DNA of 45,836 bases from Malassezia furfur (Eukaryota). Of the stretch, positions 10,546-12,264 are shown piece by piece. Within the stretch, counting starts at the first letter, position 1. Each line of letters opens with the position of its first letter. The position numbers and the translations under genes were made by a program. Below the pieces are notes generated by a model. It was given only the letters and a program-made list of their open reading frames with translations. It did not search any database and was not told the origin of the DNA. Location: the NCBI GenBank assembly GCA_052055015.1, contig JBQJIT010000036.1. The stretch is one strand, 5' to 3'.

Positions 10546-11097
10546 ATGGTTGGTATTCAACACAATACGTCTCTTACACAACAGAGCTCTTCTGAAGTGA
10601 ACAAGTGCACCTGTACTACCCCGTGCCCGTGTGGTAGCAACTGCAAGTGTGCCCAGAAGTGCACTTGCTCGACGTGCAAGTGTTCGTCGTCCAAGGAGCA
10701 GTGCGGTGCAAACTGCAAGTGCGAGACGAACACGTGCACGGAGAAGTGTGACTGCTCGACGTGCAAGTGTTCGTCGTCCAAGGAGCAGTGCGGTGCAAAC
10801 TGCAAGTGCGAGACGAACACGTGCACGGAGAAGTGTGACTGCTCGACGTGCAAGTGTTCGTCGTCCAAGGAGCAGTGCGGTGCAAACTGCAAGTGCGAGA
10901 CGAACACGTGCACGGAGAAGTGTGACTGCTCGACGTGCAAGTGTTCGTCGTCCAAGGAGCAGTGCGGTGNNNNNNNNNNGTGCAAGTGTTCGTCGTCCAA
11001 GGAGCAGTGCGGTGCAAACTGCAAGTGCGAGACGTGCAAGTGCAGCCCGAACTGTCAATGTTCGGGCTGCACTAGCGGTAATGCCTGCAACTGCTAA
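10546..11097 (+). CDS. Long modular metallothionein MT-1 (spans a 10-N gap at 10970-10979; probable intron 10549-10584)
   Basis: Cys-rich with CxC motifs and no aromatic residues; repeated 29-aa unit CSTCKCSSSKEQCGANCKCETNTCTEKCD; GTTGGT...CTTACACAACAG after the ATG fits the local intron consensus. Confidence 0.88.
   Translation: MVGIQHNTSLTQQSSSEVNKCTCTTPCPCGSNCKCAQKCTCSTCKCSSSKEQCGANCKCETNTCTEKCDCSTCKCSSSKEQCGANCKCETNTCTEKCDCSTCKCSSSKEQCGANCKCETNTCTEKCDCSTCKCSSSKEQCGXXXXCKCSSSKEQCGANCKCETCKCSPNCQCSGCTSGNACNC
10666..11032 (+). repeat. 87-bp coding tandem repeat in MT-1
   Basis: Identical units start at 10666, 10753 and 10840; a partial unit starts at 10927 and runs into the N gap; another partial unit follows it. 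Confidence 0.95.
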
Positions 11098-11230
11098 CTT
11101 TAACCGCCTGTAGACTTCATAAACGTGCTTGATGCAAAATTAGTTACGAATAATGACCACCCTTCATGAACTCCCGTTTACGAGTTTCTTGGCGTTCGTT
11201 TTGAGAGTTGATGCTACCTAGCCAAGAAAG

Positions 11231-11466
11231 AAATAAATCTATCTCAGTTTACGACCGAAAACAGTTTCAAACCCCATCATGTTGTAATAGGATGTCTTGG
11301 TTCCATAGGAACATGCAGTCGAGTTTCCATCCGTTCCTACCCATGTGAAATAAATCTATCTCATTTTAAGACTAAAAACCGTTTCAAAATCCCCACCATG
11401 TTGTAATGGGATGTCATGGTTCCATGGGAACATACAGTCGAATTTCCGTCCGTCCCTGACCATGTG
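11231..11466. repeat. Diverged tandem direct repeat (117 bp + 119 bp) between the two MT genes
   Basis: Copy 1 (11231-11347) and copy 2 (11348-11466) both run AAATAAATCTATCTCA...CATGTTGTAAT.GGATGTC.TGGTTCCAT.GGAACAT.CAGTCGA.TTTCC.TCCGT...CCATGTG; roughly 80-85% identical by eye. Confidence 0.9.
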
Positions 11467-11591
11467 ACCCCCAAGAGGACCAGCACACGACAACGGGCCG
11501 CTATAAAGACGCATACCCGACTTTTCTACCACGTTCGGATGAGCTAGTGCTTGGCACACGATATGCGCCGCAACGCACCAAGTTGAGCTAT

Positions 11592-11659
11592 TTTCGCCAC
11601 CAATAGGAATGCACATAATATTTATCACGTGAGATACATGACTCTCATTGGTGGCGAAA
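11592..11659. repeat. Perfect 13-bp inverted repeat (TTTCGCCACCAAT / ATTGGTGGCGAAA) with a 42-nt spacer containing TCACGTGA
   Basis: Arms at 11592-11604 and 11647-11659; E-box at 11625-11632; ~110 bp upstream of the MT-2 ATG. Confidence 0.85.
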
Positions 11660-11770
11660 TTCTCTCATCCGCTCCGCCATGAATTCTCGAACCCCGGTTG
11701 TTCCGGAGGGGCAAACATTTAAAAACCCGGTCGAACGAAGCAAATAACCCCCACCAAAAAGTTATCAAAC

Positions 11771-12264
11771 ATGGCTTGTTGCTCATCTCAATCTTCTCAG
11801 CCTTTTGGGAACCAGGCAAATATCTCTCAATGTGGTTGTGGGCCACAGGCCTCGGCTTCTTCGTGCCAATGTGGCCCCAAGCCATCGTGCAGCAAGAACT
11901 GCAGCTGTGGCAGCGACTGCAAGTGCGGTGACAACTGCAAGTGCGCCGACTGCCAAGCCTCCAAGGGTGCGTGCAGCAAGAACTGCAACTGTGGCAGCAC
12001 TTGCAAGTGCGGTGACAACTGCCAGTGCGCCAACTGCCAAGCCTCCAAGGGTGCGTGCAGCAAGAACTGNNNNNNNNNNNNNNNNNNNNNNNNNNNNNNN
12101 NNNNNNNNNNNNNNNNNNNNNNNNNNNNNNNNNNNNNNNNNNNNNNNNNNNNNNNNNNNNNNNNNNNNNCCAACTGCCAAGCCTCCAAGGGTGCGTGCAG
12201 CAAGAACTGCAGCTGTGGCAGCACCTGCAAGTGCGGTGACAACTGCCAGTGCGCCAACTGCTAA
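11771..12264 (+). CDS. Long modular metallothionein MT-2 (spans a 100-N gap at 12070-12169)
   Basis: MACCSSQ...CGCG...CQCG, then a repeated 28-aa unit CSKNCxCGSxCKCGDNCxCAxCQASKGA; the same unit resumes after the gap and ends CQCANC-TAA at 12264. Confidence 0.88.
11888..12261 (+). repeat. 84-bp coding tandem repeat in MT-2
   Basis: Near-identical TGCAGCAAGAACTGC...GCCTCCAAGGGTGCG units on both sides of the N gap. Confidence 0.9.

Follow-up and report, generated by a model that had tools for sequence, protein, structure and literature searches.

The DNA analysed here (hereafter, the window) is a stretch of 45,836 nucleotides from contig JBQJIT010000036.1 of the Malassezia furfur assembly GCA_052055015.1. 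It contains two short, cysteine-rich open reading frames (ORFs), which we term MT-1 and MT-2, and each of them includes a tandem array of cysteine modules that is broken by an assembly gap. The coding features and the gaps are:

10546..11097 (+): MT-1 coding region, an ORF with its TAA stop included, interrupted by the gap at 10970-10979
10666..10969 (+): 87-bp (29-codon) tandem array of MT-1 (Tandem Repeats Finder, TRF: 3.5 copies, 100% matches, no indels)
10970..10979: assembly gap of 10 N in the 87-bp array; the flanking 35 nt are identical
11771..12264 (+): MT-2 coding region, from the ATG at 11771 to the TAA stop at 12262-12264, interrupted by the gap at 12070-12169
11886..12069, resuming at 12170-12264 (+): 84-bp (28-codon) tandem array of MT-2 (TRF: 2.2 copies before the gap, 95% matches)
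12070..12169: assembly gap of 100 N in the 84-bp array; the flanking 40 nt are identical

An earlier note on this DNA, made from its letters, had described two cysteine-rich genes on the same strand about 670 bp apart, with modules of 29 amino acids (aa) or 87 bp in MT-1 and of 28 aa or 84 bp in MT-2. The distance from the MT-1 stop to the MT-2 ATG is 673 bp, both genes are on one strand, and TRF and the translations agree with both module lengths. MT-1 consists of a 20-aa leader, an N-terminal box with 10 Cys (the N-box), at least three identical 29-aa units with 8 Cys each, and a C-terminal variant unit with 10 Cys. (Past the gap, a comparison of the repeat family finds a partial 87-bp copy at 10980-11071, which then diverges into the C-terminal variant unit.) MT-2 begins with an N-terminal stretch that contains CC, CGC, and CQC, and continues with at least three 28-aa units, every one of which has 8 Cys. 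Its Cys frame covers 11771-12069 and is found again at 12170-12264, beyond the gap; the apparent frame shift arises because the length of a 100-N gap is arbitrary (conventional). The final copy of the MT-2 unit (12170-12264) is 96% identical to 11946-12040. Over the whole array the MT-2 copies are 90-96% identical at the DNA level and differ exclusively at non-Cys codons, and the MT-1 copies are 100% identical.

The spacing of the cysteines is regular. The N-box of MT-1 reads CxC-x3-CxC-x3-CxC-x3-CxC-x2-CxC. The 29-aa unit of MT-1 has a 6-residue spacer (x6) followed by C-x3-CxC-x4-C-x3-CxC-x2-CxC, and the 28-aa unit of MT-2 has an x6 spacer followed by C-x3-CxC-x3-CxC-x3-CxC-x2-C. Thus, the core of the MT-2 module is CxC-x3-CxC-x3-CxC-x2-C, plus one additional Cys upstream. 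That the N-terminal box of MT-1 holds the Cys spacing of the MT-2 module, as the earlier note had claimed, is exactly what the two spacing lists say. Spacings of x1, x2, and x3 predominate in both proteins, and CC opens MT-2.

The two gaps have the same explanation. On either side of the MT-1 gap, 10935-10969 is identical to 10980-11014, and on either side of the MT-2 gap, 12030-12069 is identical to 12170-12209 (100% in both cases, by blastn). Both gaps are repeat-collapse breaks, with contig ends that overlap inside the arrays, and because of these identical flanks the visible copy numbers of both arrays are minima. By subtracting the duplicated overlap (by arithmetic, without building a joined sequence), we obtain a minimal MT-1 of about 168 aa with 44 Cys (the 10-Cys N-box, three 8-Cys units, and the 10-Cys C-terminal unit) and a minimal MT-2 of about 117 aa with 30 Cys.

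The composition of both products is that of metallothioneins. Among the visible residues, 47 of 179 are Cys in MT-1 (26%) and 32 of 129 in MT-2 (25%); in eight neighbouring ORFs (6359 codons), Cys makes up 1.05%. The modules contain neither aromatic residues nor His; outside them, MT-1 has a single His and MT-2 a single Phe, both in the N-terminal leaders. The translations do not begin with a hydrophobic, signal-peptide-like stretch in either protein. The earlier note took both ORFs for metallothioneins, and their composition and motifs are in line with this: of the Kagi-type hallmarks of metallothioneins, both have the high Cys content (about 15-35%), the near-absence of aromatic residues and His, and the CxC, CxxC, and CC motifs. 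The hallmark that they lack is a low molecular mass, as MT-1 has at least 168 aa and MT-2 at least 117 aa. This no longer excludes them, because some accepted metallothioneins are as long as 122-257 aa (PMC4755600).

Several features also suggest that the Cys frame is a coding frame. The repeat units of 87 and 84 bp are multiples of 3, whereas a noncoding repeat of 119 bp between the two genes is not. In the Cys frame, GC content peaks at the third codon position, at 0.69-0.87 over both genes (by codon position, 0.27/0.62/0.77 in MT-1, 0.37/0.66/0.69 in the part of MT-2 upstream of the gap, and 0.30/0.67/0.87 in the part downstream). For Lys, the AAG:AAA ratio is 33:0 in MT-1 and MT-2 versus 148:51 in the neighbours, and for Cys, the TGC:TGT ratio is 59:20 versus 38:29, although these codon counts are soft evidence as the copies are not independent.

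Judging from these sequence features, we think it probable that MT-1 and MT-2 are real genes, arranged in tandem, for cytosolic metallothioneins with a modular build, as known from CnMT1 and CnMT2 of Cryptococcus neoformans and TmMT of Tremella mesenterica. The modular likeness to these copper-thioneins, which the earlier note had pointed out, is apparent in the repeated Cys boxes and the spacers between them (PMC4755600).

How are the two genes related? We judged the similarity of the modules against 1000 composition-preserving shuffles per pair. The N-box against the MT-2 unit scored 63 (shuffles 29.0 ± 9.4, reached by 1 of 1000), the N-box against the MT-1 unit scored 75 (32.7 ± 9.5, reached by none of 1000), and the MT-1 unit against the MT-2 unit scored 69 in the best of all rotations (44.9 ± 7.8, reached by 5 of 1000). 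These scores show that the likeness of the modules lies in the order of their residues, beyond composition. Between the N-box of MT-1 and the MT-2 unit, 8 of 8 Cys are kept, with just 3 of 14 identities at non-Cys positions. The gene duplication proposed in the earlier note is backed by these shuffle tests and by a core promoter that both genes have in common (described below), and the sequences support an origin of the pair by tandem duplication. The second part of that proposal, independent internal amplification, is one of two histories that are open. The arrays may have been amplified independently in each gene, which is favoured by the differing unit lengths of MT-1 and MT-2 and by a best unit-to-unit alignment that is out of phase. 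Alternatively, the ancestor may already have been modular, with the units later homogenised inside each gene, which is favoured by the spacers, as these have 6 residues with a central S-K in both genes.

The region upstream of each gene, and the sequence between them, contain further elements, and MT-1 also has a candidate intron:

10477..10493 (+): MT-1 core promoter, GGCAAACCTT then TATAAAAA; TATAAAAA begins 60 bp before the ATG, and the element aligns with the MT-2 core
10549..10584 (+): candidate in-frame intron of MT-1, 36 nt, GTTGGT...CAACAG, directly after the ATG (read from the sequence)
11230..11467: 119-bp tandem duplication, intergenic (TRF and blastn: 2 copies, 85%)
11584..11667: 21-nt inverted repeat in the MT-2 promoter, with a CCAAT/ATTGG box in each arm (repeat search: arms 86% complementary)
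11710..11725 (+): MT-2 core promoter, GGCAAACATT then the TATA-like TTTAAAAA, which begins 53 bp before the ATG

The two upstream regions have in common a core of about 30 nt, GGCAAAC(C/A)TT(A)TAAAAA ... GTCG(T/A)ACGA, and the start context TATCAA..ATG is also common to MT-1 and MT-2. The sequence GGCAAACNTT has two sites in the window, and both are in the core promoters (shuffle mean 0.39; 8 of 100 shuffles reach 2). This likeness of the promoters fits a duplication that carried the promoter along, and co-regulation of MT-1 and MT-2 is probable.

The 119-bp duplication occurs nowhere else in the window, matches nothing in Rfam and no tRNA, and has a 13-nt palindrome, GTTCCAT(A/G)GGAAC, inside each copy; it is possible that it is a duplicated upstream element of MT-2. 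The 21-nt inverted repeat upstream of MT-2 brackets a palindrome, TCACGTGA, at 11625-11632, and a similar stretch, TCCACGTAAGATA, is found near 10368-10380 in the MT-1 promoter. Upstream of MT-1, there are 5 CCAAT boxes within 326 bp (10211-10536), compared to 68 in the whole window; this clustering is suggestive, and MT-1 may be under the control of a CCAAT-binding complex. Rfam and tRNA scans (9800-12600 and 9000-13500) found no tRNA and a single isrG match at chance level (18.3 bits vs 100). As for the 36-nt stretch at 10549-10584, it is a candidate intron that would preserve the frame whether it is spliced or unspliced. Splicing would shorten the MT-1 leader by 12 residues. In M. sympodialis, the mean intron size is 30 bp (PMC5389616, Table 2).

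Both proteins are strings of 8-Cys modules joined by 6-residue linkers rich in Ser and Lys. If they are metallothioneins, then by analogy to CnMT1/2 and TmMT every module would enclose a metal-thiolate cluster of its own, and capacity would add up with the number of modules. Judging from the type of box, the metal that they bind is most likely Cu(I), and Zn(II) or Cd(II) would be bound to some extent. Scaling from Cu5 per 7-Cys box and from Cu40-42 per 57 Cys in TmMT, MT-1, with a minimum of 44 Cys, would be predicted to bind about 30 or more Cu(I), and MT-2, with a minimum of 30 Cys, about 20 or more. The tandem duplication would have taken in the core promoter, which makes co-regulation likely. 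The arrays would then have been expanded or homogenised inside each gene through unequal recombination, and in MT-1 this change was presumably very recent because the copies are identical. We infer, from the sequence and from these analogies, that both genes are expressed and that their products are cytosolic and bind metal; the preferred metal, the stoichiometry, and the order of evolutionary events are predictions of the same kind.

Searches of protein collections give some support from outside the locus. A HMMER search with MT-2 (99 aa) against 1.84 billion representative sequences gave three matches (E = 2.5e-8 to 1.1e-5), from marine protist transcriptomes, an ochromonad genome, and a JGI/IMG contig, and these have repeated CxCGxxCxCGDxCxCxxC modules in common with MT-2. 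An HMA heavy-metal domain is present above the Pfam threshold in one of the three (32.1 vs 24.8 bits) and below it in another, and one scores 26.9 bits to the Ec family. The fusion to HMA would tie the module to metal handling, and the likeness itself may be convergent. We also built a profile from an alignment of seven sequences (A2) and ran it against 177,635 distinct PDB sequences. At E ≤ 10 there were four matches, and all four are metallothioneins: 6qk5, a Cd-metallothionein (0.013), 5mn3 and 5ml1 from Littorina (0.14 and 0.51), and 2kak, wheat Ec-1 (0.16). The Pfam matches of MT-1 and MT-2 are all sub-threshold and are confined to metallothionein families or to the Cys-rich TCR domain. 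The ESM Atlas leads were all below 0.9 (0.81, 0.80, and 0.79 for MT-2 and 0.77 for MT-1). An AlphaFold2 model of residues 1-99 of MT-2, from the 7-row alignment A2, was uninformative (mean predicted local distance difference test score, pLDDT, of 38.2; predicted template modelling score, pTM, of 0.17; no secondary structure).

There are no predicted proteins for MT-1 or MT-2 in the libraries that we searched, which do contain neighbouring M. furfur proteins. (Six of the eight long neighbouring ORFs are in the public protein collection letter for letter, and the 90% clusters are named Malassezia furfur and M. brasiliensis, which places the window in M. furfur or a species very close to it.) As the neighbours are present, the two genes seem to be unannotated in the assemblies covered. 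This fits the warning in the earlier note that the locus is easily missed, and metallothionein genes are often missed or mis-annotated by gene finders and annotation (PMC4755600). Among the papers that were searchable, we found no description of a Malassezia metallothionein. Metallothioneins are not mentioned in the available text of the M. restricta zinc pyrithione transcriptome paper (PMC6092343) or in that of PMC5137500 and PMC13368582.

The searches also reveal a pattern among protist and metagenome proteins with such modules. P0001 and P0003 begin with an HMA domain (above the threshold in P0003 and below it in P0001), continue with several CxCGxxCxCGDxCxCxxC modules, and end in a hydrophobic tail. 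L001 (580-1359) has the modules and the hydrophobic tail, with no HMA match. Their sequences suggest that these three are membrane-anchored metallothionein-like proteins, possibly of an undescribed architecture. Four metagenome loci (49-56% identity) were considered as orthologues and rejected, as they encode unrelated CKCGDNC-type repeat proteins. One metagenome contig, L004 (568-2028), has a 486-aa ORF in which a Cys- and Asp-rich tail of about 70 residues with CxC repeats follows a seemingly ordinary enzyme body.

A number of results weigh against a pair of metallothionein genes, or against copper as their ligand. Both coding regions are interrupted by assembly gaps, so their full-length products are not visible. 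All Pfam metallothionein families (PF00131, PF02067, PF02068, PF01439, and others) stayed below their gathering thresholds; the best match was to Metallothio_PEC, the plant Ec family, with 13.3 bits vs 31.8 (E = 0.1), and the others reached 7.5-11.9 bits vs 23-25. Searching the PDB with MT-1 and MT-2 themselves (phmmer) gave no matches at E ≤ 10, and the matches of the A2 profile are weak and compositionally biased. A word-indexed search of 5.8 billion clusters (E ≤ 0.01) found no relative of MT-2 at near length and none of MT-1 at near or longer lengths. The three HMMER matches among the 1.84 billion representatives include no fungal relative, and homology to CnMT or TmMT was not returned. 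Thus, the similarity could be convergent low complexity. Also, the spacing is not exactly that of the family-8 box, with x3 rather than x5 and 8 rather than 7 Cys. Neither promoter contains the Ace1/Cuf1-type motif HTHNNGCTGD or the Mac1-type motif TTTGCKCR (0 of 30 and 0 of 11 matches in the window, respectively, are within 9930-10545 or 11098-11770). These are ascomycete copper-responsive consensi, which may not be those of Malassezia. Finally, Lys-rich CKC motifs and the likeness to plant Ec and mollusc Cd-metallothioneins leave a preference for Zn or Cd possible.

That last point leads to a variant that we consider unlikely, in which MT-1 and MT-2 are mainly zinc (or cadmium) buffers, with 8-Cys modules that form M(II)-thiolate clusters and that handle the zinc load of the skin or of zinc pyrithione. 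The best lead in Pfam (E = 0.1) and one of the best in the Atlas (score 0.80, rank 2) is the plant Ec zinc family, the top profile matches in the PDB are mollusc Cd-metallothioneins and wheat Ec-1, and the modules are rich in Lys, with CKC motifs. On the other hand, every one of these sequence leads is sub-threshold, and the modules have no His, which takes part in zinc binding by Ec-type metallothioneins. The CxC-x3-CxC-x3-CxC-x2-C core is nearest to the 7-Cys box of fungal Cu-thioneins, and the long modular fungal metallothioneins that have been characterised are Cu-thioneins that bind Zn or Cd poorly (PMC4755600). A physiological argument for zinc is that in M. restricta, zinc pyrithione raises mainly cellular zinc and copper only slightly (PMC6092343).

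Two further alternatives would remove metal binding, or function, altogether. It is improbable, in our view, that the proteins are rich in Cys but are not metal sponges, and instead serve as buffers of thiol redox state or electrophiles or as disulfide-bonded structural repeat proteins. Although no metallothionein family threshold is reached, the AlphaFold model is uninformative, and similar CKCGDNC repeats turn up in proteins with no relation to these (at L003 within an exported bacterial protein, at L004 at the end of the 486-aa bacterial ORF), the strictly periodic CxC pattern fits the ligands of metal-thiolate clusters, and all four PDB profile matches are metallothioneins. Also, a folded structural protein would require aromatic or bulky hydrophobic residues, which are almost absent, and because neither protein has a signal peptide or a hydrophobic segment, we would expect both to be in the reducing cytosol. 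We think it very improbable that the ORFs are non-functional, either as a decaying or silent coding minisatellite or because the layout has been distorted by repeat mis-assembly. This would explain why gaps with identical flanks break both arrays, why all six frames are open through the repeats, and why a predicted protein for either ORF is absent from the libraries searched, but metallothionein genes are known to escape gene finders and annotation (PMC4755600). Moreover, both genes have an ATG, a stop, and TATA-type boxes at matching distances within a common core promoter; the length of each repeat unit is divisible by 3, which that of the noncoding 119-bp repeat beside them is not; they use preferred codons; and their Cys positions are conserved even though the genes have otherwise diverged.

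The neighbourhood of the pair does not point to metals. Pfam scans of 18 flanking ORFs identified housekeeping genes (Sey1, SPT23/MGA2, OTU1, an ALG9-like mannosyltransferase, Cdc6/ORC1, a PLD-domain protein, MTHFR, PDCD2, PHO81, CCT1, a C2H2 protein, a kinase, and a Brix protein). We rejected a metal-related neighbourhood, as there is no metal transporter or regulator among the flanking ORFs in these scans. The pair lies between the OTU1-like gene and a gene downstream of MT-2, at 12377-13572 on the minus strand. The latter is represented by overlapping ORF pieces (12377-13183, 13170-13472, and 13279-13572); short introns are probable, and the two pieces that were scanned had no Pfam match at 1e-4.

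The earlier note placed the genes in an AT-richer island. This is correct as to direction, with 51.2% GC in 9800-13400 versus 62.8% and 61.6% in the flanks, but the effect is modest, as three other intergenic stretches have 54-56%. The lowest 200-bp window, at 11201, has 38.5% GC, and other intergenic regions go down to 40%. We considered and rejected a centromere or an inactivated centromere, because the cores of M. furfur centromeres have 15-27% GC over 168-721 bp (PMC7025860, Table 2). The island is simply two small genes with long promoters.

It is conceivable, though we regard it as doubtful, that the arrays are coding minisatellites that act as a contingency locus, with unequal recombination varying the number of modules among M. 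furfur strains or hybrids. We raise this because the units hardly differ, if at all, and keep the reading frame. If it were true, the assembly breaks in both arrays would mark real length heterogeneity, beyond short-read collapse, and the locus would be an intragenic counterpart of the amplification of CUP1 genes. On skin, it would also adjust the capacity for copper and zinc, and perhaps the tolerance to antifungals that deliver metal.

Among the fungi of human skin, Malassezia dominates, and one of the main treatments is a metal ionophore, zinc pyrithione. If MT-1 and MT-2 are expressed and bind metal, they would fill a gap in the map of copper and zinc handling in this genus. If our interpretation is correct, they would also represent a second yeast lineage, beyond the Tremellales, with high-capacity metallothioneins that are built from repeats. 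With its identical repeats, the locus is a natural setting in which to follow the evolution of module number, and it illustrates how annotation and short-read assemblies lose genes of this type.

Among known systems, the closest parallel to the proposed metallothionein pair is CnMT1 and CnMT2 (CMT1 and CMT2) of C. neoformans, which is also a basidiomycete yeast of a mammalian host with two long paralogous metallothioneins. CnMT1 has 122 aa and CnMT2 has 183 aa (186 in the abstract), with three and five 7-Cys boxes, respectively, that are separated by spacers and that bind Cu5 each (PMC4755600). Both systems have tandem Cys boxes with the logic CxC...CxC...CxC-x2-C and with spacers between them, both have about 25% Cys, aromatic residues are absent or almost so, and the sizes are comparable (122 and 183 aa vs ≥117 and ≥168 aa in the Malassezia pair; PMC4755600). 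However, the Malassezia module has 8 Cys and a first spacer of x3, where CnMT has 7 Cys and x5. The Malassezia copies are identical or nearly identical in DNA (100%; 90-96%), a sign that they were expanded or homogenised recently. The Malassezia genes, for their part, adjoin each other. And the CnMTs have demonstrated Cu binding, Cu induction, and a role in virulence, whereas any such property of the Malassezia pair is putative.

TmMT (257 aa, 57 Cys, 10 exons, with Cu40-42 as the major species; PMC4755600) is likewise a modular Cu-thionein with repeated boxes. Its box, CXCX3CSCPPGXCXCAXCP, has x3 as its first spacer, as do the Malassezia modules, and TmMT resembles them also in a TATA box near the start and in having been mis-annotated in the genome (PMC4755600). 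It differs in that it is a single gene with 10 exons, whereas the Malassezia genes are seemingly intronless or have at most the one candidate 36-nt intron, and in that its boxes have diverged, are rich in Pro, and have 6-7 Cys (PMC4755600). More generally, internal duplication is a route to long metallothioneins in fungi (PMC12508003).

The short family-8 metallothioneins (Cu-MT of Neurospora crassa and Agaricus bisporus, 26 aa, 7 Cys) have the three CxC pairs and the final C after x2 in common with the Malassezia modules. The primeval family-8 box is X2-CXC-X5-CXC-X3-CXC-X2-C-X3, with 7 Cys (PMC4755600). These proteins differ in having one module rather than many and spacers of x5/x3 rather than x3/x3 (x8 in the N-terminus of MT-2), and each Malassezia module has an extra Cys. 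By eye, the N-terminus of MT-2 (CGC...ASS-CQCG) resembles that of N. crassa (CGC...ASS-CNCG), and the MT-1 unit (CG..CKCET..C.EKC.C) is reminiscent of the C-terminal end of Crs5 from Saccharomyces cerevisiae, although in the latter case the Cys spacings differ (PMC4755600, Table 1).

The metallothioneins of molluscs (Littorina littorea and Helix pomatia) and wheat Ec-1 account for all four of the PDB structures that were matched by the profile. These proteins also have Cys domains that arose by modular duplication (PMC12508003). However, the mollusc and wheat proteins are specific for Cd or Zn, with 9-Cys domains or His ligands, and the E values are just 0.013-0.51. This likeness is almost certainly convergent.

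In Saccharomyces cerevisiae, the tandem array of CUP1 raises metal capacity and can be changed through recombination. The Malassezia pair resembles CUP1 in that capacity would be raised by tandem amplification, but the amplified units are whole genes in CUP1 and are modules within each gene in Malassezia.

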